Positions 2,194-56,106 of a stretch of DNA of 64,000 nucleotides are shown here, in pieces. This DNA is from Parcubacteria group bacterium (GTDB lineage: Bacteria; Patescibacteriota; Minisyncoccia; Moranbacterales; UBA9337), in contig JBAZSW010000001.1 of assembly GCA_041662245.1 (NCBI GenBank), positions 119,757-183,756 of the forward strand, written 5' to 3'. A program made the translations under genes and the position numbers. Numbering within the stretch: position 1 is the first letter of the stretch; each line of letters starts with the position of its first letter. The notes beneath the pieces are model-generated. The model was not told where the DNA came from, ran no database searches, and saw only the letters and a list, made by a program, of their open reading frames with translations.

Positions 2194-5100
2194 ATGGAAA
2201 AAGATAATTTAGATCCAAGAAAAGTAGCGGAAAACTTGGGTGATGAGATTAGAAAAAATTTGAAAAATAAAAACGTTTCAACTGAGGCGGTTTTTGAGGG
2301 TGAGCAGAAAGAAGCTTCAGCGAAAAAAGATCCGATTATGACATCCGAAGATGAATTAAAAACAGGCCTAGATGAAGCACAGACTTCCAATAAAAAACCC
2401 AAGAAAGAAGAACTGACGTCAGAGGAGAAAGAAAAAGTTTATAAGTTGAAGAAAGATTTGGAAGATATTTTTAAAAGAAAAGAATTTGAAAATTATAAAA
2501 AAAAGAATCCGGATAGATTGGCGGAATACATCAGGCAGATAACAAGACAGGCGGAAAATAATATTAAAAAGGAGAAAGAATGGGATGCTTTAGATATCTT
2601 ATTGGATAAAGCTAAAAAAAGTAAGGCAACTACGCTAATCAGAATTTTGGAGGAAATAAAAAATAATAGGGGAACGGAAAAAATAAAAGAAAATTGGACA
2701 TTGGAAGAAATAAACGAAAGATTAAAATCAGCCGGTGCTGAAGATGAAGATATTAAATACTTTTTTACACTAATTAAAAAAGATAGATTAGATTTTCTTA
2801 ATTCAAATGATGAGGATCTGAGATTTAGAATTGGAAAATTAAAAGAAATGAGAGAAAGTGATAAAACAAGGCAAGAAAGTGCTGAAAATCAGGAAGAAAA
2901 AGTCGAAAAAGAGATGTTATCAACTGAAAATAATGACGAGGAAAAAGAAGTGGAAAATAGAAGAGTGTTGAAATATCTAGGAGGAGAAGTAGAAAGGTGT
3001 CGAAAAGAATACGTTAAAAAAGAAGATGAAGTGGGGGTTAAAATTTCTCGACTCAAAAATTTCTTTCGAAATCTTATTTCTATTGATAAAACTTATGAAA
3101 TTGAGAAAGAATTAGAAACTTACAAAGAAGAATATGAGAGAGCTCTGAAAAATCATTTGGAGGCGGTAGTTGATATTTTGGGTATTTCTAGCGAAGAAGA
3201 GCTAAAAAATTTACTTAATTATACTAAATTTGAAGAAAAACTGAATTTAATAAACGCCAAGGAGGATTTAAAATTTGAAAATGATCCTCGTTTGGAAAGT
3301 TTTAAGATACATTTTAAATCATGGGCAGTGGGCGCCTTGGAAGGCTACAAAAATTTGTTAGCCAAACCTCGAGAATTAATTACACAAAAAACTGGTTCAA
3401 AAATAAAAGGATTTGCTGGTGGAATGATCGCAGTGGGAGGAGCGATGGCATTTGCAAGCAATTATATTCCTGGACTAAGAAATGTGACCGTTCCCCTGAG
3501 TGTAGCGATAGCAACCATGGGATTTCAAAAAAGAGCTCAAGAAAAAGTTGAAATTGAAAAAGGGCAGTCTTTGGAAAGAGGGTTGGCAGATTTGCAAACT
3601 AGATTGGCGGGAATGGATGATAATCTAAAAAAAGAAATTCTTAAAAGAGAATTAGGAATGGAAATAAAAGATATTCCCGAAAAAGTTATTCGAGAAACAG
3701 AAGAAAAATATAAAAGATATTTATATTCTTTTGGTAAGGCTGTAGCCGTGAGTACTTTTTTCTATGAAGTAGGACAGTATGTCAGGGGGTATCTTTCTGG
3801 TTCGGAAACGGATCATCTCAATGAATCTATAATGAAAGACAATCTTGTGAAGGCGGGGGTTAAACTTCCTCCAACCCAAGACGAAACTTATCATATTAAT
3901 CGTCATCCAGAGGCCAATACCGCGGGAATAGCTGATGGAAGACCAGCGGGTATTCATGGAATGCAAAATCAAAAAATAATGGATGAGCCAAAAATTCCCG
4001 AAGGAGTAGCGCCTATAAAAGCAGAAACTATTCAAGAAACATTCAAAAAATTTGGAATAAAAGATTTAGATGCGAATCCTAATGAATCTCCAGAAGCTAA
4101 TCCTACCGATGCATCACATCCCGAAATTAAAAGCGACACTAATCCTACAAAAAGTGAAGAATTAGATAGCAAGGAGGGTGGAACGAGCGAGGAAATTAAT
4201 GTTTCAGAAAACAACGAAGATATTTTTAAAAATGAAGCACTAGAAACGCCAGAAATAAAGAGGACAGAATTTTCTGGTATTGAGTTGAATAACTCTAATA
4301 ATGGAGAATTGATAATAAAACAAAAGGATAGTGTTATCGGTACCATTGCCAAATTTTTAGAAAAAAATAGCGACAAATTGACAGAGGGGAAAATGGGTTT
4401 TGATCCAGCTAAATATTCCGGAGCAACCCTAGAAGAAAAAATTCATAGTTGGTCACAGATAAGAGCCAATGCTATCGCTAAAGAATTTGCTCGTGCTAAT
4501 AGTGAATATAATTTAAATAAAGTATCAGATGGTTCAAGCATCGCTTTAAATCTAAATAATTTAGCTGATATAAAAATCGAGCATCTCAATGATCAATATC
4601 ATTTAGGAGGAGAAGCTGTCTCTCAAGAAATTCCGATAAGCGCAACTGATAATGCAGAGAGGTTAATAGAGGTAAAAGAAACTATTAGATTAGAAAATGC
4701 CACTAAGGATGAAATGGAATTAGTTCATAAAATAGGATTAACTCCCAAAGAATATGCGGATTTGAATGACAAATCGGTGATAAATTTTCTTGATTCTAAA
4801 AATTCTGATAATCCCATTGATTCCAGTGCTCAATTAAAAAATATTCTTAAATATTTGATTAAAGAGGGATCAATTAACAATGTAAATAGTAGTGTTTCAG
4901 ACGCGATTAGAAGCTTGGATGAGCATTCCTTGGGAAAAATATTTGATAAGAGCAGTCAAATATTTACCCCCGATTTTTCTTTGCGAGAAGATTTTAATTA
5001 CAGTGAATATGTGGGAGAAGTGGTTAAAAATGAGCTATCAGAAGTGATTCGAGATAAATCTATTTTAGGTTTGGTTTTTAAGGAGATTGGCAGTATTAAA

Positions 5101-6147: not shown

Positions 6148-8634
6148 ATGTTTGATCTTAATTCTATTTTGTTATTTCTAGTAGTTGCTTTAGGCAGTAT
6201 GTCTGCTATTAGTGGCTTGTTTTTGGTGGTGCGTAGTTTCTTTCGCTTTCGTATTCAAATAAATTATTCTATAAACATGGATTTGGAGGTTGTCAGGGTG
6301 ACAAAAACAAATAAGAAAGATGGTGCTTCTATGGGGGGTGGACAAAACGGAGAAGTCTGGAAAGAAGAAGTGGGAGCAATGGAACAGTTGCTGACCACTT
6401 TATCAAAGACTAGAGTAAATAAATCATTTTTAAATAAAATTTTTTATGACGTTCCTTGTATTTCTCTAGAAATAGCTAAACCTTCCAATAGTGAAGAAAT
6501 ATTTTTTTATGTTGCTATTCCTAGAAAATTAAGAGAAACTATTGAAAAACAAATTCACAGTTATTTTCCTAACGCTTCTATAGAAAAAATTTCGGATTAT
6601 ACTATTTTTTCTCCGGGGAGCTTTACTGCCTCTGCCGTTTTGGAATTGAAAAATAGACATGCTCTTCCGGTAAAAACGTATGTCTATATGAATGGTGATC
6701 CTCTTAATGAAATTTCTAATTCATTGAGTAAATTTAAGGCAGATGAAGAGGGAGCGTCAATTCAGTTAGTGATTACCCCTGCCAAAAGAGGTTGGCAGAC
6801 ATTGGGAAAAACAATTGCGCATAGAATGCAACAAGGAAAAAGACTTAAAGATGTGCATAGTGATTCATTGATTTCAAAAATGGGAAGCGAAATAGGAAAA
6901 GGCGCAGGTGATGTTTTAAGTACTTTGATGGCCAGTAATAAGCCAAATAATGACTTGGAAAAGAAAAATATTATTCAATTGACACCAGAAGAGCAGGAGC
7001 TTATTAAATCCATAGAGAGTAAGTCTAACAAAGCTGGTTTTAAAGTTAACATAAGACTGTTGGCTTCAGCAGATTCTCAAGGTAGAGCGGATGAAATATT
7101 GGCTCAAATAGAAAATTCTTTTTCTCAATTTGAAAATCATGGAGTTAATTATTTTAAAATTAAGAAAAGGACAAAAAATAAAGATAATTCTTTCGATTAT
7201 ATTTTTAGAAATTTTAATGATGATAATGCTATAATTCTTAATACTGAAGAGATAGCTAGTATTTTTCATTTTCCAATTTCCACTACAGAGACTCCTAAAA
7301 TTAAATGGCTTAAAGCCGGGGCGGCTCCACCGCCAATAAATATTCCTTCAGAGGGAATATTATTGGGATATAATGATTATCGAGGAGAAAAAACAGATAT
7401 AAGACTATCTGATAGCGATAGACGAAGACATCTTTATACAATTGGACAAACTGGAGTTGGAAAATCACATTTTCTTCAAGCCATGGCTAAGCAGGATGTG
7501 ATGAATGGTAAAGGAATTTGTTTTATTGATCCCCATGGGGATGCAATCGAAGATATATTAGCTGCAGTTCCGAAAGAAAGGGCGGAAGACGTAATTATTT
7601 TTAATCCAGCGGATAGTGAAAGACCCCTAGGATTAAATATGCTTGAATACGACAGACCTGAAGAGAAAAGTTTTGTGATTAATGAAATGATCAGTATTTT
7701 TGATAAATTATACGATCTAAAGCAAACAGGAGGTCCAATGTTTGAACAATATGCGAGAAACGCAATGCTTCTTGTAATGGAGCATCCTGAATCAGGCTCA
7801 ACCCTAATGGAAATTCCCAAGGTTTTAGCAGATGAAGAATTCAGAAAAATGAAATTATCTCATTGTAATAATCCGGTAGTGAGAGATTTTTGGATAAAAG
7901 AAGCAGAAAAAGCAGGAGGAGAGGCAGCTTTGGCCAATATGGTACCTTATATCACCTCTAAACTTACCACCTTTATTTCCAATGATTTGATGCGACCAAT
8001 AATTGCTCAGCAAAAAAGCGCTTTAAACTTTAGAAGTATCATGGATGAAGGAAAAATATTACTTATCAATCTTTCCAAGGGAAGAATTGGAGAAATCAAT
8101 AGTCATCTTTTGGGAATGGTGATGGTTGGCAAGATTTTAATGGCAGCTCTTTCTCGAGTAGATATGCCAGAAAATGAGCGCAAAGATTTTTATTTATATA
8201 TCGATGAGTTTCAAAATGTAACGACTGATTCAATCTCTCAAATTCTTTCAGAAGCTCGAAAATATAGATTGAATTTAATTATTGCCCATCAGTTTATCGG
8301 CCAGTTGAGCGAGGAAATATCTAAAGCGGTTTTTGGTAATGTTGGATCATTATGTGCTTTTCGAGTAGGCCCAGAAGACGCGGAATTTTTAGAAAAACAA
8401 TTTGAACCGATTTTTACTGCTAGTGATTTGATTAATGTAAATAACTATAGCGGTTTTGCTAAATTATTGATTAATAATGACACGACTAAGCCATTTAATA
8501 TAAAAACTTATCCACCTAGAGAAGGTAATAAGGAAATTTCCAAATATCTTAAAGAGATGTCTCGTTTAAAATATGGTCGAGATGCTAATATTGTTAATCG
8601 AGAGATAATGGAAAGAACTAAATTTAGAACTTAA
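6148..8634 (+). CDS. VirB4/TraE/TrbE-like conjugative/type IV secretion ATPase (AAA_10/HerA-DUF87-like), N-terminal TM segments (VirB3-VirB4 fusion-like)
   Basis: N-terminal TM segment LFLVVALGSMSAISGLFLVV. Walker A HLYTIGQTGVGKSH followed by the FIDPHGD motif characteristic of HerA/VirB4-family ATPases. Walker B-like LYIDEFQNV. The gene is immediately followed by a VirB2/TrbC-like pilin gene. Confidence 0.7.
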   Translation: MFDLNSILLFLVVALGSMSAISGLFLVVRSFFRFRIQINYSINMDLEVVRVTKTNKKDGASMGGGQNGEVWKEEVGAMEQLLTTLSKTRVNKSFLNKIFYDVPCISLEIAKPSNSEEIFFYVAIPRKLRETIEKQIHSYFPNASIEKISDYTIFSPGSFTASAVLELKNRHALPVKTYVYMNGDPLNEISNSLSKFKADEEGASIQLVITPAKRGWQTLGKTIAHRMQQGKRLKDVHSDSLISKMGSEIGKGAGDVLSTLMASNKPNNDLEKKNIIQLTPEEQELIKSIESKSNKAGFKVNIRLLASADSQGRADEILAQIENSFSQFENHGVNYFKIKKRTKNKDNSFDYIFRNFNDDNAIILNTEEIASIFHFPISTTETPKIKWLKAGAAPPPINIPSEGILLGYNDYRGEKTDIRLSDSDRRRHLYTIGQTGVGKSHFLQAMAKQDVMNGKGICFIDPHGDAIEDILAAVPKERAEDVIIFNPADSERPLGLNMLEYDRPEEKSFVINEMISIFDKLYDLKQTGGPMFEQYARNAMLLVMEHPESGSTLMEIPKVLADEEFRKMKLSHCNNPVVRDFWIKEAEKAGGEAALANMVPYITSKLTTFISNDLMRPIIAQQKSALNFRSIMDEGKILLINLSKGRIGEINSHLLGMVMVGKILMAALSRVDMPENERKDFYLYIDEFQNVTTDSISQILSEARKYRLNLIIAHQFIGQLSEEISKAVFGNVGSLCAFRVGPEDAEFLEKQFEPIFTASDLINVNNYSGFAKLLINNDTTKPFNIKTYPPREGNKEISKYLKEMSRLKYGRDANIVNREIMERTKFRT

Positions 8635-17074: not shown

Positions 17075-17193
17075 AGTCTTTGTTGGCTTTGGAATTGTAT
17101 TTTTTTAGTTTTTAAAATTGGGCTTAGTTTTTTACTAAGTCGAACATTAAAAATTATATTCCGCGATAGCTCAGTGGTAGAGCAGTTGGCTGT

Positions 17194-17758
17194 GAACACA
17201 ATCTTTTGTATAATTAATTTATATGAAAGATACAAGAAAATACACTGATCGTTCTGAATATTTAAAACAAGCTGTATCTAAAAGAAGAAAGAAAATAAGA
17301 GATATAGCAATTGAATATAAGGGCGATAAATGTTTTATCTGTGGTTATGACAAATGCAAAAATGCATTAGAATTTCATCATACCGACCCAGTGAAAAAAG
17401 AATTTGGATTATCTAAATCAGGATTAACTCGTAGCTGGGAACGTGTAAAAAATGAAATTGAGAAGTGTGTTTTAGTTTGTGCTAATTGCCATAGAGAATT
17501 ACATGACAAAAACGCAGCCCTCAGTAGAAATACTAAGGTGAAAATAAGGTGAATTGCTGGAAGTCTAAAATCTTTTTTCAGTGTAAAGATTACGATAATC
17601 AGCAGCCGAGCCCCGACGTGACGTCGAGGAAGGTTCAGAGACTATCCCTTCGGGGAGTACTTTCTCTTTAATTAGAGATGGGAAGCGCCTTATCTCATAA
17701 TCTTTTGTAAGAAATGAGAATGATATAGTCCACCCTTTTTGGAAACAAGAAGATAAGT
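17194..17758 (+). mobile_element. Group I self-splicing intron with HNH homing endonuclease ORF (ORF in P1 loop, catalytic core 17553-17758)
   Basis: Canonical group I core elements are present. R element GGTTCAGAGACTA is at 17631-17643. S element GATATAGTCC is at 17721-17730, forming P7 with AGACTA. The 5' exon ends in U and the intron ends with an omega-G. The HNH ORF is embedded upstream of the core. Confidence 0.75.
17223..17552 (+). CDS. HNH homing endonuclease (intron-encoded)
   Basis: Zinc-binding pairs CFICGYDKC and CANCHRELH. HNH motif EFHHTDP...N...H. The ORF lies inside the tRNA intron. Confidence 0.75.
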   Translation: MKDTRKYTDRSEYLKQAVSKRRKKIRDIAIEYKGDKCFICGYDKCKNALEFHHTDPVKKEFGLSKSGLTRSWERVKNEIEKCVLVCANCHRELHDKNAALSRNTKVKIR

Positions 17759-17792
17759 GTAACCAATTGGTCGGGGGTTCGAATCCCTCTCG

Positions 17793-18085
17793 CGGAGCAA
17801 ATTAAGAAAGATACCTGCAAAGGTATCTTTTTTAATTTGCTCCGCGAAGAAAGTGAATGGTTTCACTTTTGTGAGGGTTCGAAAGTCGGAGTGTTGTGTG
17901 AGTTTTTCTGTTTAGGCAGAAAAGGCAAACACCACGAGACGGGGTCGCGAAATTTTTACGTCAGGAAAAATATTTGTGACAGAATCCCTCTCGCGGAGCT
18001 GCGAAAAACTCAAAAAAGACTACCTTATCAGGATAATCTTTTTTTGTTTTGTATTTTTCCTAGGACCGTCCTAGAAATAGGTAGA
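17793..18085 (+). repeat. Direct repeat 1 (~290 bp) of island; begins at tRNA 3' end and contains a second copy of the tRNA 3' end (GAATCCCTCTCGCGGAGC at 17984-18001)
   Basis: Near-identical (~93%) to 22911-23203. It contains a terminator hairpin and an internal 18-nt duplicate of the tRNA T-loop/acceptor 3' strand. The ORF-track ORF 17837-18115 inside it is judged spurious. Confidence 0.8.
17807..17836 (+). terminator. Rho-independent terminator after tRNA 3' exon (inside direct repeat 1)
   Basis: Stem AAAGATACC / GGTATCTTT with loop TGCAAA, followed by a T-run. An identical hairpin lies in direct repeat 2 at 22921-22950. Confidence 0.6.
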
Positions 18086-18782
18086 AGTATGTATCTATTT
18101 ATGCTAAAATCATAACATATGAGCAGAAGAGAAAAAATAATTATAGGAGAGTATTATCATATTTTTAATCGTGGAGTGGAGAAGAGAAAAATATTTAATA
18201 ATAAAAATGATTATTTTCGTTTTTGCAATTCGATGATTTTTTTGAATACGGAAAAACCTTCTAAAATGTCTTTTGACAAATTTGATGATAATGAACGTCC
18301 TTCTGACAATGAGATGTTAGTAGATATTGTTGCGTACTGCTTAAATTCAAATCACTTTCATTGCATTTTAAAAGAGAAACGGGAAAATGGAATTGCGACT
18401 TTTATAAAAAAAGTTTGTACAAGTCATGCTATGTATTTTAATAAAAAATATGAAAGATCAGGAGTATTGTTTCAGGGAAGATTTAAATCGGTACATATAG
18501 ATTCAAATGATTTACTGTTGTATTTATCTGCCTATGTTAATTGCAATAGTCAGGTTCACAAAATAGAGGATGCTGAAAAATATCCTTGGTGTAGTTTTCC
18601 TGAGTATTTAGGCGGGCTTGGAATTGGATGTCAAAAGTCTATCATTCTCGATCAATTTAAAAGTTCAATTGATTATAAAACATTTTGTTTAGAAAAAGTT
18701 GATGGAATGATAAGTAGGAAGGATAATGAAAAATTATGTTTTGAATAGTCATAATTTCTAGGACCGTCCTAGCTAGTTAGTG
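18060..18782 (+). mobile_element. RayT/IS200-like HUH-Y1 transposase gene flanked by identical 15-bp perfect palindromes CTAGGACCGTCCTAG (REP/REPtron-like unit)
   Basis: Palindromes at 18060-18074 and 18768-18782 bracket the ORF at 18119-18748. A third copy lies at 23839-23853 and a degenerate copy in direct repeat 2 near 23176. Confidence 0.6.
18119..18748 (+). CDS. REP-associated tyrosine transposase RayT / IS200-like Y1 HUH transposase (COG1943-like)
   Basis: N-terminal YYHIFNRGVEKRKIFNNKNDYFRF matches the COG1943 pattern (YHV.NRGN.RQ.IF...D..F). HUH motif NHFHCIL. FQGRFKS. Catalytic Tyr region LYLSAYVNCN. Confidence 0.65.
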   Translation: MSRREKIIIGEYYHIFNRGVEKRKIFNNKNDYFRFCNSMIFLNTEKPSKMSFDKFDDNERPSDNEMLVDIVAYCLNSNHFHCILKEKRENGIATFIKKVCTSHAMYFNKKYERSGVLFQGRFKSVHIDSNDLLLYLSAYVNCNSQVHKIEDAEKYPWCSFPEYLGGLGIGCQKSIILDQFKSSIDYKTFCLEKVDGMISRKDNEKLCFE

Positions 18783-18784
18783 AA

Positions 18785-19336
18785 ATGGTTAAGCTGGGTG
18801 ATATTTGTGATATATATATTGGCGGGACACCATCAAGGAAAATTGGTAAATATTGGGGCGGAAAAAATCTCTGGGTTAAAATAAAAGATATGAAGAAGAA
18901 TGCTTCTTCTATAATGGATACGGAGGAAAAGATAACAGATGAGGGTATCAATAAGTCCAGCGTTAAGCTTCTCAAAAAAGGAACTTTATTGTTTAGTTTT
19001 AAATTAACAATAGGAAAGGTTGTTATTGCAGGAAGAGATCTCTATACAAACGAAGCTATCGCTGGTATAGTTCCGAAGGACGGTAAGGTTTTAATGAAAT
19101 ATTTATATTACATATTGCCTAGGTTAGATTATTTATCTTATTGTCAACGAGCAACGAAAGGTATGACTTTAAACAAAGAAATCTTAAATAGCCTGAGTAT
19201 ACCATTGCCTTCTGTTGCAGAACAAGAAAAAATAATAAAAAAGCTTGATGAAATAGAATTGAGAAAATATAAATATTTAGAGAATTTAAAAAATGCCACC
19301 GCTGAGCAAGATAGAGAAATTTTAAATATCTTGTAG
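18785..19336 (+). CDS. Type I restriction-modification specificity subunit HsdS-like, single target-recognition domain (orphan)
   Basis: LGDICDIYIGGTPSRK start. TRD core with NEAIAGIVP. C-terminal conserved region SIPLPSVAEQEKIIKKLDEIE (PLPPLAEQ-type). Only 183 aa. No hsdM/hsdR in the window. Confidence 0.65.
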   Translation: MVKLGDICDIYIGGTPSRKIGKYWGGKNLWVKIKDMKKNASSIMDTEEKITDEGINKSSVKLLKKGTLLFSFKLTIGKVVIAGRDLYTNEAIAGIVPKDGKVLMKYLYYILPRLDYLSYCQRATKGMTLNKEILNSLSIPLPSVAEQEKIIKKLDEIELRKYKYLENLKNATAEQDREILNIL

Positions 19337-19373
19337 CAGTATAAATTTTTTAATATTCAATTTATTTGTTATA

Positions 19374-20045
19374 ATGAAAAAAAGAAATAAATCAAAAACA
19401 AATATGAAAAAAAAATCATTAATCACGCATAGTCAACATTTTGTTCTTACAAATGATAAAATAATTCGTACCGCTCTTAAAGAAAAATTAGAGGAGTCTT
19501 ATTTTGGAATAAAAAATACTAAGATTATTGAAGAATTAGGCATTACTCATGGGGAGGCTCGTATTGACATAGCTGTTGTTAACGGTGTTATACATGGCTA
19601 TGAACTAAAGAGTGACAGGGACACATTAAAACGGTTGCCTGGTCAGATTGAAATATATAACACAGTTCTTGATAAGGTAACACTAGTGGTGGGAATGAAT
19701 CATTTGCATGAAGCGATGAAAATCGTTCCAGATTGGTGGGGTATAACAATTGCAAAAATAGTAAATTCAGATAGCGTAGTTTCTTTTTTTAATATTCGAG
19801 AACCAGAAGAAAATAAAAATCAAAACAGCGCTGCTGTTGCTGCACTGTTATGGAGAGAAGAAGCTCTCAAAATATTGGAGAATATAGGACAAGCCAAGGG
19901 GATGCAATCAAAAAGTAGAAAGGCTATATATGAAAAATTGGCTGATGTTTTAGAAAAAAAATCTTTAAATAAAATCGTTCGGGAACAGCTACGTACTAGG
20001 GTAAATTGGCGATCTGATTTGCAGTGCATACCAAGTGGTGGTTAA
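19374..20045 (+). CDS. PD-(D/E)xK-fold nuclease-like protein (sce7726-family-like)
   Basis: Motif GEARIDIAVVNGVIHGYELKSDRD (D ... E-x-K). Convergent with, and overlapping, a 372-aa partner gene. The family assignment comes from memory of family descriptions, not a search. The true start may be the second Met (MKKKSL, ~19404). Confidence 0.4.
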   Translation: MKKRNKSKTNMKKKSLITHSQHFVLTNDKIIRTALKEKLEESYFGIKNTKIIEELGITHGEARIDIAVVNGVIHGYELKSDRDTLKRLPGQIEIYNTVLDKVTLVVGMNHLHEAMKIVPDWWGITIAKIVNSDSVVSFFNIREPEENKNQNSAAVAALLWREEALKILENIGQAKGMQSKSRKAIYEKLADVLEKKSLNKIVREQLRTRVNWRSDLQCIPSGG

Positions 20046-21114
20046 TACCTGCTGTTAGCCATGTTTCAGTGCTTCCAGTGCCTTTAATTTCTGGGTTTAG
20101 TTGGTATTTTTCAAAATGTTTCCCCTTATCAAATATATACTTGTCGCCAATGCTAAAATTTTCTCCCATAAAAAGATCTACATCCTCTGATAGTAGTTTT
20201 GCATTGGCTAAATAGAGTTCATACTTTTGTTTTTTACCTTTCATGATTAGCCAATTACTTTCCAGTGTATATTTTATACTAGTGGTGGGAGGAAAGAATT
20301 GAAAAGATTCTTTGTATATTGGATGCTGAATTGTGTAATCTGCAAATATCGGATTTCTTTGCAGGGTTTTTGCGCTAACATAACCAAGCCAACCTATCCA
20401 ATCATGACGAGGAAGATAATTTTCTTCATCAAGTTTGCACTTGGATAAATCTAGGGGAAAAGCGCCACCTGCAAAAATAAATGATCTCCATTTTGATAGG
20501 TTGTGAATTTGCTGACTCTTAGTTATATATGTTTGATATTTGCCATCATTTTCTTCGACACTTTTAATATCTACTAATAGGTCAATATTCTTTTCTTCTA
20601 GATTGTAAGAAGTTAAAAAATCATTAATTTTTTTATTCAGCACATCTATGTCAGAGAAATCAGAACAAACTATTCGCAAGCACAAACCGTTGTTGTGTTT
20701 TTTTGCTAATAATCCGACGATATTTTTAATCTGAAGATCATCGTTAATGTTTATCACTGGAATCAAAACCATCCCGTTGGCACCTCCTTTTGTTAGTATT
20801 TTTTCAAAGCATGTTATTTTCAATGACGTGGTGTATAGGAGACTAAAATCAATAAATATTGGATCTTTTCCCCAAAACTTCAAAATTTCTTCTGAAATTT
20901 CAGGTATTTTTTCACTAAACGTTGCTATGACTTTATTAAATTTTTCCTCTTGAGTTTGTTCCGATGCTTCTTTTGTGCTTGATTTTGGCTTTGGCATTAC
21001 GAACTGAATTAGTGGAGTAATATATCTTTTACTTTCATCATTTAAAGCCTCTAGGGCTTTTTGCTCAGCACGTTTCCATTTTAATATTGGCACATAATGT
21101 TTTGCTTCAAACAT
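19996..21114 (-). CDS. Hypothetical 372-aa protein, possible Beta-protein (PF14350)/sce7725-family-like partner of the PD-(D/E)xK protein
   Basis: N-terminus MFEAKHYVPILKWKRAEQKALEAL resembles the YVPILK.K.GE..AL start I recall for Beta_protein/sce7725 families. Its 3' end overlaps the convergent gene at 19374-20045 by about 50 nt. This is an inference only. Confidence 0.3.
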   Translation of the reverse strand: MFEAKHYVPILKWKRAEQKALEALNDESKRYITPLIQFVMPKPKSSTKEASEQTQEEKFNKVIATFSEKIPEISEEILKFWGKDPIFIDFSLLYTTSLKITCFEKILTKGGANGMVLIPVININDDLQIKNIVGLLAKKHNNGLCLRIVCSDFSDIDVLNKKINDFLTSYNLEEKNIDLLVDIKSVEENDGKYQTYITKSQQIHNLSKWRSFIFAGGAFPLDLSKCKLDEENYLPRHDWIGWLGYVSAKTLQRNPIFADYTIQHPIYKESFQFFPPTTSIKYTLESNWLIMKGKKQKYELYLANAKLLSEDVDLFMGENFSIGDKYIFDKGKHFEKYQLNPEIKGTGSTETWLTAGINHHLVCTANQIANLP

Positions 21115-21115
21115 A

Positions 21116-22321
21116 CTAGTTAGTCCATTTTTCCTCAGGAAAATATTCTTTAACTTTTGCCTGATTTATAATGTTATTTAAATAAATATAATTACCTCCA
21201 GCGCGTCGCATTTTACCAGCAACGATAGCTATGTGTATTCCCAATTCCCTTGCTAGACTTTTTGCTGCCATAGAGTTAGGCATCAAACTAGCTGGGCTTA
21301 CCTCCCATCTACCCTCAGGAACGAGAGCTTCCGATGCTAATTTATCAGCTTCATCTTCCGTGATATTAATATCAGTATTATCTAAATCGTCATAGAAAAA
21401 ATCAGATCCTTGGTTGTAGTGAAGCGCAATATGTGCAAGTTCATGCATTAGGGTAAACCAAAAGTTATCAAGACGATTATGTCGGATTGTTAGTCCGATA
21501 ATAGGTTTATTTTTGTTTGTTAGAATTGTTGCACCATCCAGGTATGTTTGAGTGAAGTGAGGTTCTATTATTAAAATAATCCCATATTTTTTTAAAAAAT
21601 TACGAGCAGCAACAGGTCCATTTTCTCTTATGCTTAATTTTGCCAATTCTTGCATAAAGGTTAAATTTATTAACTCCGACTTAAATGGGGAAACATTTTT
21701 TATTTTGCTTGCTTTTCTTACTACAATAGTAGACCAAACAACGAGAGCATGTTTATCCATAGGTCGTGTGGATCTGTAGTTGGTTTTACGAAGCATTCCG
21801 GATAGGCATGCTGGGGAGCCCACAGGAGCAAAAAAATTTTCCATCACGGTTTTTATATCAGATATTGTAGATAATTTTTCTAAATATCCTCGCCTTATCA
21901 TTTCCTTTAATGGGAAACGGTTCCAGACAATATTTTCTGTATTTCTGAATTCGTCAGCTTCTTTTAATAGGACTTTTGCAGGAATACCTAATCCGGCTTC
22001 AAGAGCTCTTATCATTGAAAGAGTTAATTGTCTTTTGCGAGAGAGAATTTCTGAGACCTTGCTTCTGCTTCCGATATAAGGTACTAAATCTGATGGTTTT
22101 AAATTCTGTTGTTCCATTCTAAATAAGATCGCATCAATTGGATCTGGCAAAGACTCCGGAATTATTTTTGATTCATAATCCTTTATTAGTGTTATTAGGA
22201 GACTTAGTTTTTCACCATTCTCTGAGTTAGGATCGGGATTTTTGTCCATTAAATTCTCGACTAACTTTATAGCCTCTTGATAATCTTCTTCAGTTTTTAT
22301 AACCTTGATTTTAGTTGTCAT
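21116..22321 (-). CDS. HTH (XRE-like) + ImmA/IrrE-family zinc metallopeptidase fusion; HigA-type antitoxin partner of HigB
   Basis: HEXXH motif in MHELAHIALH with downstream FYDD (COG2856-like). N-terminal helix-turn-helix region. It lies 15 nt downstream of the HigB-like gene on the same strand. Confidence 0.65.
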   Translation of the reverse strand: MTTKIKVIKTEEDYQEAIKLVENLMDKNPDPNSENGEKLSLLITLIKDYESKIIPESLPDPIDAILFRMEQQNLKPSDLVPYIGSRSKVSEILSRKRQLTLSMIRALEAGLGIPAKVLLKEADEFRNTENIVWNRFPLKEMIRRGYLEKLSTISDIKTVMENFFAPVGSPACLSGMLRKTNYRSTRPMDKHALVVWSTIVVRKASKIKNVSPFKSELINLTFMQELAKLSIRENGPVAARNFLKKYGIILIIEPHFTQTYLDGATILTNKNKPIIGLTIRHNRLDNFWFTLMHELAHIALHYNQGSDFFYDDLDNTDINITEDEADKLASEALVPEGRWEVSPASLMPNSMAAKSLARELGIHIAIVAGKMRRAGGNYIYLNNIINQAKVKEYFPEEKWTN

Positions 22322-22336
22322 AGTATTTTCTGGTTA

Positions 22337-22615
22337 TTACCAGCTCATATATTCATTATGTGTGCCGGCATTCATTATTAGGACCGCTTCGTATGGGTAG
22401 TTGATCTTAGTTTTTAGTCTGTATTTAACTCCTTTTAAATTAAATATCACAGTATTGTCTGCTAAAAAACTCGCACTAGCATAGCGCTGCTTGATATCTT
22501 GTGGCGTGCACCACCTTGCCATTGCTACTTCGGCTTCCCAAGCGTCTACCTGTGAACGGACATCAGCGTGCTTTTGCTTGAAAGTATGTAATTTTTCTTT
22601 ACCAAGGATATTCAT
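22337..22615 (-). CDS. higB: HigB-family type II toxin (RelE/ParE superfamily)
   Basis: MNILGKEKLHTFKQKHADVRSQVDAWEAEVAMARWCTPQDIKQRYASASFLADNTVIFNLKGVKYRLKTKINY matches the HigB pattern (KHPDAR..L.AWY.EV..A.W..P.D.K..Y.SAS...DN.VVFNI.GNKYRL). The ORF-track start 22642 is 9 codons upstream. The internal Met at 22615 fits HigB homolog length. Confidence 0.75.
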   Translation of the reverse strand: MNILGKEKLHTFKQKHADVRSQVDAWEAEVAMARWCTPQDIKQRYASASFLADNTVIFNLKGVKYRLKTKINYPYEAVLIMNAGTHNEYMSW

Positions 22616-22634
22616 TATTATTGACTGTATAATT

Positions 22635-22651
22635 GTTCCCATTATGGGAAC
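22635..22651. promoter_or_regulatory. Perfect inverted repeat GTTCCCAT-T-ATGGGAAC immediately upstream of higB; candidate HigA operator
   Basis: 8-bp arms of perfect dyad symmetry about 20 bp upstream of the proposed higB start. Confidence 0.4.
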
Positions 22652-22910
22652 ATAATATCATGTGACGAATGAGTTGTCAAGATATGAAAAAATAGGTCTT
22701 TATTGAGCTTTTTTGTTAGCTTTCAAATTTTGTGCATAGTCGCTTCAACTTTCCCGTATTAGGCAAATCCGTTACGTTTTCTTGATTGTTTGATAAGTGG
22801 GCAAATAAGAGTTAATTGGGCTACTCGAGATTAATTAACCTAATCTGTCACTGTGGCAGTTTGTTACTTCTTGTTTCTTGAAACAGGTTCGAACTTCGTC
22901 CAAGATTCGG

Positions 22911-23203
22911 AGCAAATTAAGAAAGATACCTGCAAAGGTATCTTTTTTAATTTTCTCCGCGAAGAAAGTGAATGGTTTCACTTTTGTGAGGGTTCGAAAG
23001 TTGGAGTGTTGTGTGAGTTTTTCTGTTTAAACAGAAAAGGCGAACACCACGAGACGGGGTCGCGAAATTTTTACGTCAGGAAAAATATTTGTGACCAAAT
23101 CTCTCTCGCGGAGCTGCGAAAAACTCAAAAAAGACTACCTTATCAGGATAGTCTTTTTTCGTCTCATTTATTTAAGGACCGTCTTAGTCGATTAGTTTTT
23201 TAA
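22911..23203 (+). repeat. Direct repeat 2 of island (copy of 17793-18085, ~93% identical)
   Basis: Shares the start GGAGCAAATTAAGAAAGATACCTGCAAAGGTATCTTTTTTAATT and the internal CTCGCGGAGCTGCGAAAAACTCAAAAAAGACTACCTTATCAGGATA block. The ORF 22853-23203 predicted inside it is judged spurious. Confidence 0.8.
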
Positions 23204-54298: not shown

Positions 54299-54360
54299 AC
54301 TACATTTTTTACAAAAAGATGTTATGCCTAAGTTTTGCATAACATCTTAAATTTTTTATA

Positions 54361-54396
54361 AAAAAACCTCATCTCAAAAGGATGAGTTTTTAATTT
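54361..54396 (+). terminator. Rho-independent terminator after PilZ gene
   Basis: CCTCATC TCAAAAG GATGAGG hairpin followed by TTTTTAATTT. Confidence 0.6.
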
Positions 54397-54518
54397 GTTG
54401 CGAACGTGGGACGGAGTTGGAACTTATTTGTTAAATCTTAGCTTATAAAAAAAATTCACCGAGGGGCTAAAATTAGACACGCCTCGGTGTAGGTGCTGGA
54501 AAATCAAACCAGCTAGAA

Positions 54519-54833
54519 TTATTCTTCGATAACCGCAGGGGCCAGCTCACTGAGAAGGTATGACGCATAGCTTAGGAAGTCTCGGAATCCAACTAGGTGC
54601 CTGGTTATGTGTCCTAGAGATTGTCTGCACATGGACCATTTCATAAGCATCTTGATTTGTGCATTATGGGTTCCAACAAGACTTCGCATACCGACAACTT
54701 CATCATGTTCCTCTTCTTGTGGTCTCTGCGTTGCCTCATGCACGCGTCTGCTGGCCTCCTTTTCCAAGGTCTCAATCAAATTTGCAATAACTGATCGAGA
54801 ATAGCCATTGACCACGGGATCTAAATTTTTCAT
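54519..54833 (-). CDS. Orphan 104-aa protein encoded in a GC-rich (~48-50% GC) insert; unknown function
   Basis: ORF with a strong RBS (GGAGAAGG 6 nt before the ATG on the minus strand). A downstream hairpin terminator (CACCGAGG ... CCTCGGTG at 54457-54490 followed by a T-run on the minus strand). Base composition is very different from the flanks. Confidence 0.45.
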   Translation of the reverse strand: MKNLDPVVNGYSRSVIANLIETLEKEASRRVHEATQRPQEEEHDEVVGMRSLVGTHNAQIKMLMKWSMCRQSLGHITRHLVGFRDFLSYASYLLSELAPAVIEE

Positions 54834-55404
54834 TTTGCCTTCTCCTTCTGGTGAGTTTGCATTCTATGACATATTTCAATAGCGAATTTATGCCGACAAT
54901 GTTCAACTAGGAACTCACAAACATATATTAAAATTAGACTTTTGTCAATAGCGCGTTCAAATAATCAAAGGTTCTAAAGTGATAACTGGGTATAAAAATA
55001 ACCTCTTGGATAAAAGGTTATTTTGTCTGTTGAAGATGAGGGATTCCTCTTCATCCGTCGCTTCGCACGTGACTGGTGCCACAGGCTTCGCTCCTCCCTC
55101 AGAGCCTGGGTTTTTAAAAACGCAAAGCCCTGCCTGCCGGTAGGCAAGAGTTTGCCTTTTTAAAATACCCTTCGAATCCTTCATCAATAAAAAATAAAAC
55201 CCCACCCGAAGAGGGTGAGGTTTAATTTTTCAGTTGGGGATGAATGGATTTCCGCATCACTCATTCGCCGTCACTCATTCATTCTTTGCCCTGGGTAGCG
55301 CCAAACGCTCTTTTTCGCGTTTGTCGACGTTCATTTCAATAATTTTTTGCTAAAAATTATTTTATTCACTTGCTACCCGTTCGAATCCCTGCCTCAGCTA
55401 AATA

Positions 55405-55447
55405 AAATCAAAAAACACACCCTAGCCGGGCGTGTCTTTTGATTTTA
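55405..55447 (-). terminator. Rho-independent terminator downstream of tRNA-Gln (minus strand)
   Basis: The minus strand reads GACACGCCCGGCTAGGGTGTG hairpin followed by TTTTTTGATTTT. Confidence 0.5.
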
Positions 55448-55451
55448 TAAG

Positions 55452-55522
55452 TTGGAGATGAGGGATTCGAACCCCCGATGACGGGATCAGAACCCGTTGC
55501 CTTACCGCTTGGCTAATCTCCA
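55452..55522 (-). tRNA. tRNA-Gln (anticodon CUG)
   Basis: Minus-strand cloverleaf UGGAGAU UA GCC AAGCGGUAA GGC A ACGGG UUCUGAU CCCGU CAUC GGGGG UUCGAAU CCCUC AUCUCCA A. It has a U1-A72 pair and a 3-bp D stem, as in E. coli tRNA-Gln. CCA is not encoded. Confidence 0.8.
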
Positions 55523-55629
55523 ATTGTAAATATTTAACTTAACAAGACTTATTCTAGCACACTTTTTTAATTATTTTCAATACCTATGTAGTATCTAAAT
55601 ATTATCTCAAAGTTATTATTTAATAAGTC

Positions 55630-56052
55630 TTGACAGCTTTTTATTAATTATGATAGTCTTTCAATGTTTAGAAGAGCGTTTCTTCGGATCGTACGTATCT
55701 GGAGGAAGGTAAACAAAAACAATTTTTTACGGAGGATATCATGAAAAGGTATCTAGTACCGCGCTGTGCACGGTGTATGAACGGTTACTGACGATGGGGC
55801 GCTAATATGCCCCGAATTATTTGGTTAGGGTATTTCCCATTTGAATGCCCACAAATTGGGAACGCAGAAAAAACAAAAAATGGGTACTACATTAGAGGGA
55901 GGTGAAAAAATTGTTCCAAATTAAAACTGGTCTGGGTGTTCCCTTCTGCGTATCACGCAGAGCAGGGGAGTCCCGCGGCTAAGACAGATATAACTGTCCG
56001 TGCTAGGAAGAAGAGGTCACTTTGGTATCCCGAAGTGACCTTGATTATTTTT
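55630..56052 (+). ncRNA. Candidate noncoding transcription unit (~420 nt, promoter-like TTGACA to strong terminator) with only a 16-aa ORF (MKRYLVPRCARCMNGY, 55741-55791, RBS GGAGG); identity unknown
   Basis: TTGACA at 55630-55635. Elevated GC. Several internal hairpins (for example TCTGCGT ATC ACGCAGA). Terminator AGGTCACTT ... AAGTGACCT plus T-run at 56014-56052. No ORF of at least 60 aa. No RNase P, tmRNA, SRP, T-box or B12 consensus motifs were found by eye. Confidence 0.3.
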
Positions 56053-56106
56053 ATAAAAGATGAATTTAATGTAAAATAGAAGCAATAATAAAATCATAAA
56101 AATAGA

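Follow-up and report, generated by a model that had tools for sequence, protein, structure and literature searches.

Organization of the tRNA-Gln locus

We analyzed a 64,000-nt stretch of the genome of a Parcubacteria group bacterium (GTDB lineage Bacteria; Patescibacteriota; Minisyncoccia; Moranbacterales; UBA9337), corresponding to positions 119,757-183,756 of the forward strand of contig JBAZSW010000001.1 in assembly GCA_041662245.1. We refer to this whole stretch as the window. On its minus strand, the gene for tRNA-Gln(CUG) is followed by a hairpin (T1), a gene-less folded module (unit 2), a second hairpin (T2), another such module (unit 3), a third hairpin (T3), and a cassette made up of a promoter, an orphan protein gene (ORF104) and a terminator. 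Units 2 and 3 are each about 160 nt long and each has its own terminator. The features are listed below in minus-strand order.

55551-55580, minus: putative tRNA promoter, TTGAAA-18-TAGAAT with a TG extension (consensus scan)
55451-55522, minus: tRNA-Gln(CUG), the anchor (ARAGORN; Rfam tRNA, 64.4 bits)
55451-55468, minus: tRNA-Gln tail from the T-loop onward, GAATCCCTCATCTCCAAC, repeated downstream (repeat search)
55404-55446, minus: T1, intrinsic-terminator-like hairpin and U-run directly 3' of the tRNA (inverted repeat)
55233-55392, minus: unit 2, with 5' start GGGATTCGAACGGGTAGC and 3' end GGAAATCCATTCATCCCCAAC, a degraded tRNA-Gln tail
55189-55223, minus: T2, terminator-like hairpin (11 pairs) and U-run after unit 2 (terminator scan)
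55029-55188, minus: unit 3 (fold, covariance model, identities)
55174-55185 paired with 55035-55046, minus: closing helix of unit 3
55108-55170, minus: long, AU-rich hairpin P2 of unit 3, with a near-palindrome at its tip
Within unit 3, minus: CUCU/AGAG helix with purine-rich internal loops
55069-55082, minus: hairpin P4 of unit 3
55040-55061, minus: invariant GCGACGGATGAAGAGGAATCCC of unit 3
55029-55046, minus: tRNA-Gln tail copy of unit 3, GAATCCCTCATCTTCAAC, 17/18 identical
54991-55024, minus: T3, AU-rich hairpin and U-run after unit 3 (inverted repeat, read directly)
54920-54948, minus: putative ORF104 promoter, TTGACA-17-TATGTT (consensus scan)
54838-54845, minus: ORF104 ribosome-binding site, GGAGAAGG
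54519-54833, minus: ORF104, coding for a 104-aa orphan protein (ORF call)
54447-54489, minus: terminator-like hairpin of ORF104, CACCGAGG...CCTCGGTG and T8 (read directly)
54397-54423, minus: right-end motif GTTCCAACTCCGTCCCACGTTCG then CAAC, with 23 nt common to the end of the tRNA-Thr island

An earlier interpretation made from the letters alone (the sequence-only reading) had placed tRNA-Gln(CUG) on the minus strand beside a GC-rich region, a placement on which ARAGORN and Rfam agree, and had proposed that about 1 kb at 45-50% GC formed a foreign insert in a background of about 30%. Measured in sliding windows of 1,031 nt, the excess is real: 54420-55450 has 41.7% GC compared with a window mean of 32.9% (sd 2.9), only 3 of 1,260 sliding windows reach 41.7% or more, and the top ones all lie within the tRNA-Gln region. 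The figures need adjustment. The background is 33%, the region as a whole stays at 41.7%, and 45-50% is reached by sub-parts only (ORF104, 45%; unit 3, 50%). Because the spacer between ORF104 and unit 3 (54834-55024) has 31.9% GC, which is the background level, the "insert" is better described as two GC-rich blocks than as one.

The tail of tRNA-Gln occurs three times, at spacings of 204 and 218 nt. Beyond the gene itself, copies in direct orientation lie at 55029-55046 (17 of 18 positions identical) and, in degraded form, at 55233-55253; the idea of a tRNA-anchored insertion site thus stands. The 2.7 kb of sequence beyond the window contains no tRNA. In the metagenome SRR18595301, the two assemblies are both interrupted within tRNA-Gln.

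The ORF104 cassette

ORF104 has the ribosome-binding site and hairpin terminator attributed to it by the sequence-only reading; the hairpin is missing from our terminator scan list because its loop is 17 nt long. Promoter-like sites occur at the equal relative position in two related loci, L002 and L008. With a GC3 of 0.44 vs 0.22-0.29, ORF104 is the sole compositionally foreign part of the locus. It has one close homologue, in L002 (56% identical), and its family has nine representatives among 1.84 billion proteins. An AlphaFold2 model from these nine sequences reached a pLDDT of 91, while a model from two sequences was poor (pLDDT 59); the predicted structure is an N-terminal beta-hairpin and a helical bundle. 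Searches of Pfam, PHROGs, PADLOC, NCBIfam and PDB sequences gave no family match, and the fold search found none either. ORF104 represents a rare family of small proteins with a confidently predicted fold and no known relatives.

At the far end of the cassette there is no full tail copy, only CAAC and the end motif; CAAC may be compared with CCAAC, the end of tRNA-Gln. With this motif the inserted material ends distally, at the very coordinate where the sequence-only reading had started its insert. The shared end-motif pattern occurs twice in the window and did not occur in any of 100 shuffles.

A similar arrangement at tRNA-Thr

The only other tRNA gene of the window, an intron-containing tRNA-Thr(UGU), is organized in the same way. 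Behind it come a terminator, a module ending in the tRNA-Thr tail (unit-X), and then a 4.8-kb island with defence and mobile-type genes and with 255-nt repeats at its flanks. Two features of this island matter here:

18119-18748: gene for a Y1/IS200-like protein, at the island's left end and the first to follow the unit-X block
22887-22913: closing motif GTTCGAACTTCGTCCAAGATTCG then GAGCA (the end of tRNA-Thr), the same motif as in the ORF104 cassette

We define two element families by their ends, GACGGATGAAGAGG joined to AATCCC and GTTCSAACTYCGTCC....TTCG. The Y1 protein scores 31.6 bits against Pfam Y1_Tnp (cut-off 23), and 23.6 bits against a REP-associated transposase model whose cut-off is 80.

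Structure of the gene-less units

The two ends of each unit pair to form a helix like the acceptor/T-stem helix of a tRNA, with 100-125 nt inserted at the T-loop. Unit 3 folds with -64.7 kcal/mol (z -4.7) and unit-X with a z of -5.1, while unit 2 is only weakly better than its shuffles (z -1.9). In all units and terminators the tRNA strand folds better than its complement, by 4-15 kcal/mol (4-6 for unit 3, 13-15 for unit-X and 7.7 for T1), which suggests that a transcript or one DNA strand is under selection. The consensus structure of unit 3 has 94.9% of its cells paired, compared with 37-61% in slid controls. In five of its pairs both partners change; these counts come from the same four sequences from which the structure was built. 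P4 differs in sequence in each of five loci and yet stays paired, and its G-U pairs exist on this strand only. Differences between copies concentrate in the hairpin stems (T2, P4 and P2), where pairing is preserved.

The sequence-only reading had noted two sequence details in this stretch. The near-palindrome is present at 55128-55148. The T-loop-like fragment on the plus strand, CCCGTTCGAATCCCTGCC, also exists, at 55376-55393 instead of 55369-55386; it is no isolated T-arm, being the complement of the 5' strand of the unit 2 closing helix, and a sister copy lies at 55168-55188.

Neither unit 2 nor unit 3 contains a credible ORF. A 75-aa NCBI gene call over unit 3 has no homologue elsewhere and was judged spurious; a chimeric query of the four open frames across unit 3 matched only this same spurious ORF of the same genome. 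The consensus scan found no sigma-70-like promoter before any unit.

Several further candidates were rejected. The cores of unit 2, unit 3 and unit-X are not homologous, their likeness being limited to the ends, and the unit 3 covariance model has no match to unit 2 and grazes unit-X only. We downgraded the claim that both strands of the closing helix track tRNA identity: the signal is strong for unit-X and marginal for the window and L004, and the outer complementarity of unit 3 is not significant in L003 and L008. An invertible promoter switch between inverted tail copies does not fit five loci that all have the same orientation and a core that has no promoter. Finally, group I introns in the T-loop inserts were considered. 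Their core needs about 200 nt or more while the inserts have 100-125 nt, and RF00028 has no match in 54300-56100 up to E = 10; the same model finds a true group I intron at 17461-17752.

Related loci in other genomes

Unit 3 is known from four or five independent loci, all found by an exact 19-20-mer, which makes for a small and biased sample. Of the 12 metagenome matches to the 19-mer, ten (L005, L007, L009-L011, L013-L016) are chance hits in GC-rich coding DNA. The covariance model matches L003, L004, L008 and L002, and unit 3 is present at 85-93% identity, without ORF104, in three other Parcubacteria lineages. In L003 and L004 its core follows tRNA-Gln and a terminator. In L008 it follows tRNA-Ser(GCU) and has an exact copy (18/18) of the tRNA-Ser tail; the tail copy of L003 is likewise 18/18. 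In every case the constant element-side sequence GACGGATGAAGAGGAATCCC adjoins the tail copy.

The closest relative is L004. From the tRNA to unit 3 it is 91-97% identical to the window, linkers included (T1, 95%; unit 2, 91%), whereas the flanking genes have 58-72% DNA identity and there is no similarity upstream of the tRNA. In the alignment, the -35 region before tRNA-Gln in L004 resembles that of our tRNA-Gln. Such a contrast between block and flanks fits a shared, recently spread element. The units are as conserved as the tRNA and far more so than the coding neighbours. The T2 stems of the two loci differ at several positions with all pairs kept, including G-U pairs that exist on the minus strand only. 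Unit 2 has only two known homologues. T3 is absent at the matching position in L003 and L004, and both loci lack ORF104.

L002, on a contig of 43% GC, has the ORF104 homologue directly behind the tail of unit 3. In L003, a decayed 5' part of tRNA-Gln that ends in the T-loop lies upstream of the intact gene, and this break points to T-loop recombination at the locus. The hairpin after tRNA-Ser in L008 has no U-run, which makes read-through into the unit plausible. The neighbouring PilZ proteins of the lineages with unit 3 align poorly by eye, and a search with the PilZ neighbour gave one homologue.

Proposed serial insertion at tRNA tails

The anatomy of the locus, its repeats, the pattern of conservation, the foreign composition of ORF104 and the shared end motif are direct observations, from which we infer a recombination mechanism, an order of events and an enzyme whose gene does not lie nearby. 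Serial site-specific insertion at tRNA tails, leaving tandem gene-less modules and one cargo islet, is the explanation we prefer, with a probability of roughly one half. In its favour are the tail copies that bound the modules, the recurrence of unit 3 behind tRNA-Gln and tRNA-Ser with matching tails, the block shared with L004, the foreign ORF104 and its homologue behind a unit 3 tail in L002, the parallel tRNA-Thr locus, the broken tRNA-Gln of L003 and the published analogues discussed below. The tRNA would be the anchor of a hot spot at which three modules were laid down successively, at the tRNA-Gln tail or at copies of it. Each module would begin with a terminator-like hairpin that stops transcription from upstream and end with a conserved element-side sequence joined to a tRNA-tail copy. 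Units 2 and 3 would be the older ones, having kept their attachment ends without a recombinase in the manner of cis-mobilizable elements. Gene-less modules of this kind may circulate among Parcubacteria, settling behind different tRNAs with matching tails, and through its paired ends each unit would imitate the acceptor/T-stem helix of the tRNA beside it, with the T-loop taken up by 100-125 nt. The 0.6-kb islet (promoter, ORF104 and terminator) would be the most recent module and may have landed at the tail copy of unit 3; its end motif is typical of a second element family, whose members would join at the last bases of a tRNA.

Scanned ORFs of at least 170 aa in the 64-kb window (all but five large or overlapping ones) include no tyrosine or serine recombinase, and neither do the ORFs examined in related loci (a family scan of L002, and the ORF lists of L004 and of part of L008). 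An empty tRNA-Gln site, which would have the tRNA tail joined straight to AAATTAAAAACTCATCC, was not seen among the loci compared, nor was a circular or excised form. Viral contigs scanned with the unit 20-mer, two unit patterns, ORF104 peptides and the end motif gave no match, and neither did BLASTN against phage and plasmid records.

Besides these negative results, the small and biased sample of loci, the concentration of differences in stems that stay paired and the better folding of the tRNA strand speak against insertion. Inert scars are not expected to remain 85-93% identical between lineages whose neighbouring PilZ proteins align only poorly, and standard attachment-site models assign no part to the 5' strand that pairs with the tail copy.

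Alternative explanations

A possible though doubtful alternative is that unit 2, unit 3 and unit-X encode a kind of structured RNA not described before. The closing helix would then mimic the helix and tail of the tRNA next to it, transcription would come by read-through from the tRNA promoter, RNase P, RNase Z and CCA processing would mature the product, and ORF104 would be an unrelated later insertion beside an RNA gene. The very stable folds of unit 3 and unit-X, the strand preference in every unit, the pairing of P4 and of the unit 3 consensus with its two-sided changes, the conservation at the level of the tRNA, and a terminator for each unit (kept in T2 through compensatory changes) are all what an RNA gene would show, as is the plausible read-through in L008. 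But no promoter-like site precedes the units and T1 looks like a strong terminator. The covariation comes from the same four sequences that defined the structure, the outer closing helix fails to reach significance in two loci, and the cores are non-homologous, so that what recurs is an architecture and not an RNA family. A tail copy that switches with the tRNA is also more easily explained by recombination. The tRNA-like domain of tmRNA and the tRNA-like ends of viral RNAs are mimics built on the acceptor/T-stem helix. Like them, the units would as RNA combine a helix and a single-stranded tail that copy the acceptor/T-stem part with extra RNA inserted. In the units, however, the insertion is in the T-loop, which it destroys, and not at the position of the anticodon arm; they have no tag reading frame and no Rfam or ARAGORN match.

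Strand-biased hairpins that need no promoter would suit a single-strand mechanism, in which the modules moved as single-stranded DNA by way of a Y1 (HUH, IS200/IS605- or RAYT-like) transposase. The enzyme would recognise hairpins: its target would be the hairpin of the T-arm in the tRNA gene, and the hairpin-rich units would serve as recognition ends. The Y1_Tnp gene described above is the only strand-transferase-like gene found in the window, and as the first gene after unit-X it has the usual place of an island integrase. We nevertheless consider this quite unlikely. IS200/IS605 transposition is not known to duplicate its target or to need a tRNA-tail copy. The tRNA-Gln locus has no Y1 gene, L003, L004 and L008 have none either, the score against the REP-associated model is far below its cut-off, and a hairpin with a U-run resembles an ordinary terminator.

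The sequence-only proposal that all of 54420-55450 is one recent foreign insert is now very improbable. It draws on the highest GC of the 64 kb, which sits in this 1 kb, on boundaries at the tRNA tail and at the end motif, and on L002, where unit 3 also adjoins an ORF104 homologue. But L004 has units 2 and 3 with terminators at 91-95% identity and has neither ORF104 nor the motif, unit 3 is present in L003 too, and the spacer before ORF104 has background GC. Unless ORF104 and the motif were deleted in L003 and L004, these loci already contradict a single insert. Conservation with similar composition in relatives, which that reading had named as evidence against itself, is what we found for the stem-loops nearest the tRNA, behind tRNA-Gln (L003, L004) and tRNA-Ser (L008). 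Its foreign character survives for the ORF104 cassette, by composition and absence from L004, and not for units 2 and 3.

That the stem-loops are a divergent tmRNA, RNase P RNA, 6S or SRP RNA, of which tmRNA and RNase P had been named as examples to look for in Rfam, can be dismissed as next to impossible: although the 3' end is tRNA-like and the 5' end GGAUUCGAAGGG resembles GGAUUCGACGGG, a sequence close to the tmRNA 5' end, direct reading reveals neither acceptor pairing in the register of tmRNA nor a frame that could plausibly encode a tag. The T-loop is split by the insert, two tandem 160-nt copies fit none of these RNAs, and ARAGORN adds nothing and finds no tmRNA. At gathering thresholds Rfam gives only the tRNA, and its hits up to E = 10 include nothing credible. 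The best non-tRNA matches in that search, which covered RNase P, 6S, SRP, riboswitches, ribozymes and large ornate RNAs, are to microRNA models at less than half their threshold.

Comparison with known systems

A restored gene and a displaced tRNA fragment mark the ends of genomic islands (PMC4383910). Serial insertion as we propose it would resemble such Islander-type islands in its intact tRNA, in the direct-orientation 3' copies that mark module ends, in cargo that is foreign in composition and strain-specific, and in the presence of several modules in tandem. The tail copies at our locus are the displaced 3' fragments, in direct orientation to an intact tRNA, that Islander looks for. Foreign composition together with absence from close relatives is found in the ORF104 cassette only, not in units 2 and 3, and an integrase inside the island is lacking, as there is no recombinase domain in ORF104, its neighbours or the scanned ORFs. 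Unlike Islander-type islands, moreover, the locus has no integrase gene in or near its modules. Two of the three, gene-less and conserved across lineages, measure just about 190-220 bp, and at the junction the tail copy is base-paired to the element side.

The ssrA gene of Dehalococcoides is followed by tandem islands, in which each repeat is immediately preceded by a short conserved motif and insertion is inferred to lie in the T-loop (PMC3146451). There too a single small-RNA gene of a small genome has the islands in tandem behind it, a short repeat of the gene's 3' end delimits each of them, some have no integration module, and the motif upstream of the repeat cannot be aligned with the gene. 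Those islands span kilobases, however, and 16 carry the serine-recombinase module dsiB; here the target is a tRNA, no recombinase was seen in the scans, and the element-side sequence is a folded block of 100-125 nt.

Decay to elements without a recombinase, followed by accretion, is documented (PMC5704250). Such cis-mobilizable elements have lost their integration genes and kept both attachment ends, and a newcomer entering the distal attachment site creates a tandem array. Units 2 and 3, flanked by tail copies and devoid of integration and transfer genes, have this form. The elements described are conjugative or mobilizable ones of Firmicutes that have decayed, whereas the conservation and folding of the units exceed what decay predicts.

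In mycobacteriophage Ms6, an altered attP core is reported to send integration to the T-loops of other tRNAs (PMC1762012). A T-loop crossover at the 3' end of a tRNA gene is common to both systems, and redirection by the attP core parallels one unit core with a Gln or a Ser tail. Ms6 is a full phage with its own integrase, unlike our region, which no phage or plasmid DNA in the records searched resembles.

Implications

The routes by which genes reach the tiny genomes of the host-dependent Candidate Phyla Radiation are hardly known. The two tRNA genes of the window share one order, a terminator, a folded mimic of the tail and variable cargo, and this shared architecture is a concrete, searchable signature of insertion hot spots in these genomes, which could delimit islets too small for island finders. 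More speculatively, and with odds well short of even, the units may be a new miniature gene-less element of Parcubacteria, or its RNA, combining a copy of the tRNA helix and tail, a conserved folded insert in the T-loop and a landing site for islets; it would work either as an RNA matured by tRNA enzymes or as a hairpin-guided recombination site whose enzyme is encoded elsewhere. If the units are transcribed, or are recombination sites recognised through their hairpins, they would represent a new class of tRNA mimic or a mobile module without a recombinase; if neither, they would form an ordinary though unusually compact tandem array at a tRNA gene. The locus is a compact example of how tRNA genes gather mobile DNA in tiny genomes.

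The tRNA-Gln region

The GC-rich stretch that the sequence-only reading had described beside tRNA-Gln(CUG) is real and needs minor corrections only, but its interpretation as a foreign insert was half right: there is an insertion site at the tRNA, but the recent foreign arrival is only the ORF104 cassette (a promoter-like site, the gene for an orphan 104-aa protein, a terminator and an end motif), while the stem-loops near the tRNA are conserved. These GC-rich stem-loops are modules capped by copies of the tRNA tail, of a kind absent from Rfam. The window belongs to a Parcubacteria (Candidate Phyla Radiation) metagenome-assembled genome, and ARAGORN and Rfam both place tRNA-Gln on its minus strand, as had been proposed, at 55451-55522. 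The claimed compositional contrast holds for positions 54420-55450 as a whole, at 41.7% GC; among 1-kb windows (mean 32.9%, sd 2.9) that value is reached in 3 of 1,260, and all of the highest lie at 54420-55450. GC is not uniform within the stretch: it is 45% in ORF104, 50% and 43% in the folded modules that we call unit 3 and unit 2, and only 32% in the spacer at 54834-55024. We could locate the 104-aa ORF with its ribosome-binding site, promoter-like site and terminator-like hairpin, and the near-palindrome (55128-55148). The T-loop-like fragment is also present, but at 55376-55393, 7 nt from where it had been put.

Features of the tRNA-Gln region, in order from the tRNA promoter-like site
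55551-55580, minus strand: promoter-like site of tRNA-Gln
55404-55446, minus strand: T1, terminator hairpin, first after tRNA-Gln
55233-55392, minus strand: unit 2, next after T1
55189-55223, minus strand: T2, terminator, next after unit 2
55029-55188, minus strand: unit 3, next after T2
54991-55024, minus strand: T3, hairpin, next after unit 3
54920-54948, minus strand: promoter-like site of ORF104, next after T3
54519-54833, minus strand: ORF104
54447-54489, minus strand: terminator after ORF104
54397-54423, minus strand: 27-nt end motif, followed by the bidirectional terminators of a convergent PilZ gene

The intergenic DNA between tRNA-Gln and a YecM-like gene holds another GC-rich stretch (55664-56052, plus strand; 43.5% GC). 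It has a promoter-like site (55630-55657), a strong terminator (56013-56042), a stable fold (z -4.4) and, at about 55911, a strong GGAGGTG site with a short ORF after it. The stretch has no Rfam match and resembles nothing in the related loci compared; one possibility is a leader, another a distinct RNA of ~390 nt. Two Logan contigs of SRR18595301 (L001 and L017), an independent assembly of the same organism, both stop within tRNA-Gln with an overlap of ~27 nt; this could reflect population heterogeneity there, or merely tRNA sequence common to the community.

Repeats and folding of the units

A direct repeat present three times, at intervals of 204 and 218 nt, reflects copying of the tRNA tail: unit 3 closes with GAATCCCTCATCTTCAAC, a copy of the tail GAATCCCTCATCTCCAAC, and unit 2 with a degraded version. 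Both units start with GGGATTCGAA, the complement of T-loop plus T-stem, which pairs with the tail copy. Each unit can therefore be read as the 5' strand of a T-stem with TTCGAA, then 100-125 nt, then GAAT with the 3' strands of T-stem and acceptor. Unit 3 folds into a three-way junction at -64.7 kcal/mol (z -4.7); the fold of unit 2 barely beats shuffles (z -1.9). For every unit and terminator the tRNA strand folds better than its complement, by 4-6 kcal/mol for unit 3 and by 13-15 kcal/mol for unit-X, a comparable module behind tRNA-Thr(UGU). Such strand bias points to a transcript or one DNA strand as the target of selection. Against an RNA gene, a scan of the window found no promoter-like site ahead of any unit, and unit 2, unit 3 and unit-X have mutually unrelated cores.

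In the NCBI annotation, unit 3 is overlain by a predicted 75-aa hypothetical protein, WC682_00780 (54957-55205, minus strand). A search of 5.8 billion proteins found no homologue of it elsewhere; in all likelihood the prediction is spurious and covers a folded non-coding element.

Conservation in related loci

Scanning for exact words taken from unit 3's invariant part yielded loci in two Moraniibacteriota genomes (L003 and L004) and one further metagenome lineage (L008); L012 and L006 duplicate the sequences of L003 and L008, respectively. A covariance model of unit 3 finds all these loci, together with the unit-3 copy on contig L002, and no other credible match. Ten other exact-word matches were rejected as chance. 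In L003, tRNA-Gln is followed by a terminator unlike the window's and by unit 3 only, while L004 has tRNA-Gln, T1, unit 2, T2, unit 3 and then a second, incomplete copy of unit 2's 3' half. ORF104 is absent from both, and the next gene in each is convergent and, from a reading of its translation, taken to be a HAD-type hydrolase. In L008 the unit-3 core stands behind tRNA-Ser(GCU), and the tail following ...GAGGAATCCC is that of tRNA-Ser (18/18).

L004 is syntenic with the window: it shares ZnuA/ABC transporter, PilZ, glycosyltransferase and membrane protein genes with the window, at 39-71% protein and 58-72% DNA identity. From the tRNA to unit 3, linkers included, the two are far closer (tRNA 97%, T1 95%, unit 2 91%, T2 91%, unit 3 94%), and similarity is lost upstream of tRNA-Gln. 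Across all four lineages, the unit-3 copies are 85-93% identical. The differences between copies cluster in the T2 stem, one unit-2 sub-hairpin, and the P2 tip and P4 of unit 3: the T2 stem has several changes with each pair retained, the P2 tip is 20 nt longer in the window, and P4 has five sequences in five loci, always with pairing retained. Conservation close to that of the tRNA, compensatory hairpin changes and a terminator maintained after each unit all point, like the folding bias, to selection on a transcript or one strand. The fraction of paired cells in the consensus structure of unit 3 is 94.9%, compared with 37-61% for slid controls, and both partners differ in five of the pairs; this is suggestive only, because the four sequences also defined that structure. 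The outer closing helix, on the other hand, lacks significant complementarity in L003 and L008, which counts against an RNA gene.

The segment with tRNA-Gln and the units (54397-55600) is inverted with respect to the PilZ and glycosyltransferase genes relative to L004 3495-4130; the genes around it are metallophosphoesterase, ORF104 and YecM in the window, and the convergent hydrolase-like gene in L004. At L004 4042-4125 (plus strand), unit 3 lacks its tail after CCCTCAT, and 14 nt join it to the second copy of unit 2's 3' half, whose tail, GGAAATTCCCTCATCCCCAAT, is nearer to tRNA-Gln than unit 2's own. This fusion is a sign of recombination between tail copies. Approximately 65 nt upstream of the intact gene, L003 (~2660-2760, minus strand) retains a decayed 5' part of tRNA-Gln, with a 27-nt D-loop insertion, that stops in the T-loop after GGGGTT. 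This remnant bears the ancestral promoter region, which in L004 drives the intact gene, and it speaks for T-loop recombination.

The tRNA-Thr locus

Weak matches of the unit-3 model at 17.8 kb and 23 kb pointed to a second locus in the window, where a 566-nt group I intron with an HNH endonuclease ORF (17223-17552) divides tRNA-Thr(UGU) (17160-17797, plus strand) after position 33. Default ARAGORN and the whole-window Rfam gathering run had missed this interrupted gene; in a local Rfam run the intron reaches 77.7 bits, and the tRNA is confirmed by ARAGORN once introns are permitted. Downstream lie a terminator and then unit-X, which comprises a perfect 9-bp acceptor-like helix (GCUCCGCGA/UCGCGGAGC), one hairpin, GAGGG-UUCGAA, ~100 nt, GAAU-CCCUC and the tRNA-Thr tail. 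Its fold has z -5.1, and its acceptor pairing is highly significant (1 of 2,000 shuffles).

A 4.8-kb island is flanked by two copies, 97% identical, of a ~255-nt block of terminator, unit-X and terminator (17790-18075 and 22885-23190, plus strand). The island (18119-22642) has genes for a Y1/IS200-like protein, an HsdS fragment, sce7726 and Beta_protein members, an M78 peptidase and a HigB toxin. Its end is GTTCGAACTTCGTCCAAGATTCG plus GAGCA, that of the ORF104 cassette GTTCCAACTCCGTCCCACGTTCG plus CAAC, and in both cases the last bases are similar to the end of the neighbouring tRNA. The end-motif pattern was built from these two sites and so matches them by construction; even so, agreement at 23 of 31 aligned bases between ends that occupy corresponding places in two tRNA-linked islands is far beyond chance. 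With the shared end and the units, both tRNA genes of the window therefore have the same architecture.

The ORF104 protein

ORF104 is a genuine gene, whose product is identical to WC682_00775, a hypothetical protein of a Parcubacteria group bacterium encoded on a 217-kb contig. Its single close homologue among 5.8 billion proteins (55-56% identity) is encoded on L002, a 1.8-kb contig of 43% GC, immediately behind the 3' half of a unit-3 copy. The family has nine representatives among 1.84 billion proteins, with the N-terminal motif DPV(I/V)NG(Y/F)SxSVIxxLI. A confident model from the nine sequences (pLDDT 91, pTM 0.83) has an N-terminal beta-hairpin and then a helical bundle. Comparison with known families, defence systems, phage proteins and solved structures gave no informative match; its setting suggests accessory cargo.

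Origin of the array

Serial site-specific insertion at tRNA tails, giving a tandem array, is the simplest account, and we put its probability at about one in two. Units 2 and 3 would be miniature modules without genes, the constant GACGGATGAAGAGG adjoining the tail copy would be their element-side junction, and the ORF104 cassette would be a later islet of a second family, joining at the extreme end of a tRNA-like tail. Islands in tRNA genes are usually marked by a restored gene together with a displaced 3' fragment (PMC4383910). Three published cases closely parallel the tRNA-Gln array: at Dehalococcoides ssrA, tandem arrays lie between short repeats, with insertion in the T-loop and a conserved element-side motif directly upstream of every repeat (PMC3146451); in Firmicutes, elements decay to recombinase-less forms with both ends kept, and newcomers then accrete at the distal end (PMC5704250); and for phage Ms6, both T-loop crossover and retargeting of integration by an altered attP core are reported (PMC1762012). 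Several observations fit serial insertion poorly. The ORFs scanned in the window contained no tyrosine or serine recombinase, those examined in related loci showed no evident one either, and neither an empty site nor a circular junction turned up in the loci compared. The signs of selection on a transcript or one strand also sit badly with it.

An 828-aa protein with a TrwB/VirD4-type coupling-protein domain is encoded at 6148-8634 (plus strand). Going by that domain, it is possibly a DNA-transfer component, and may be relevant to movement of the islets between cells.

The points for and against serial insertion and structured RNA lead us to rank the alternatives lower: that the units are a new structured RNA seems rather unlikely, and a single-strand hairpin mechanism employing the Y1 protein quite improbable. 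Serial insertion and structured RNA are nevertheless compatible.
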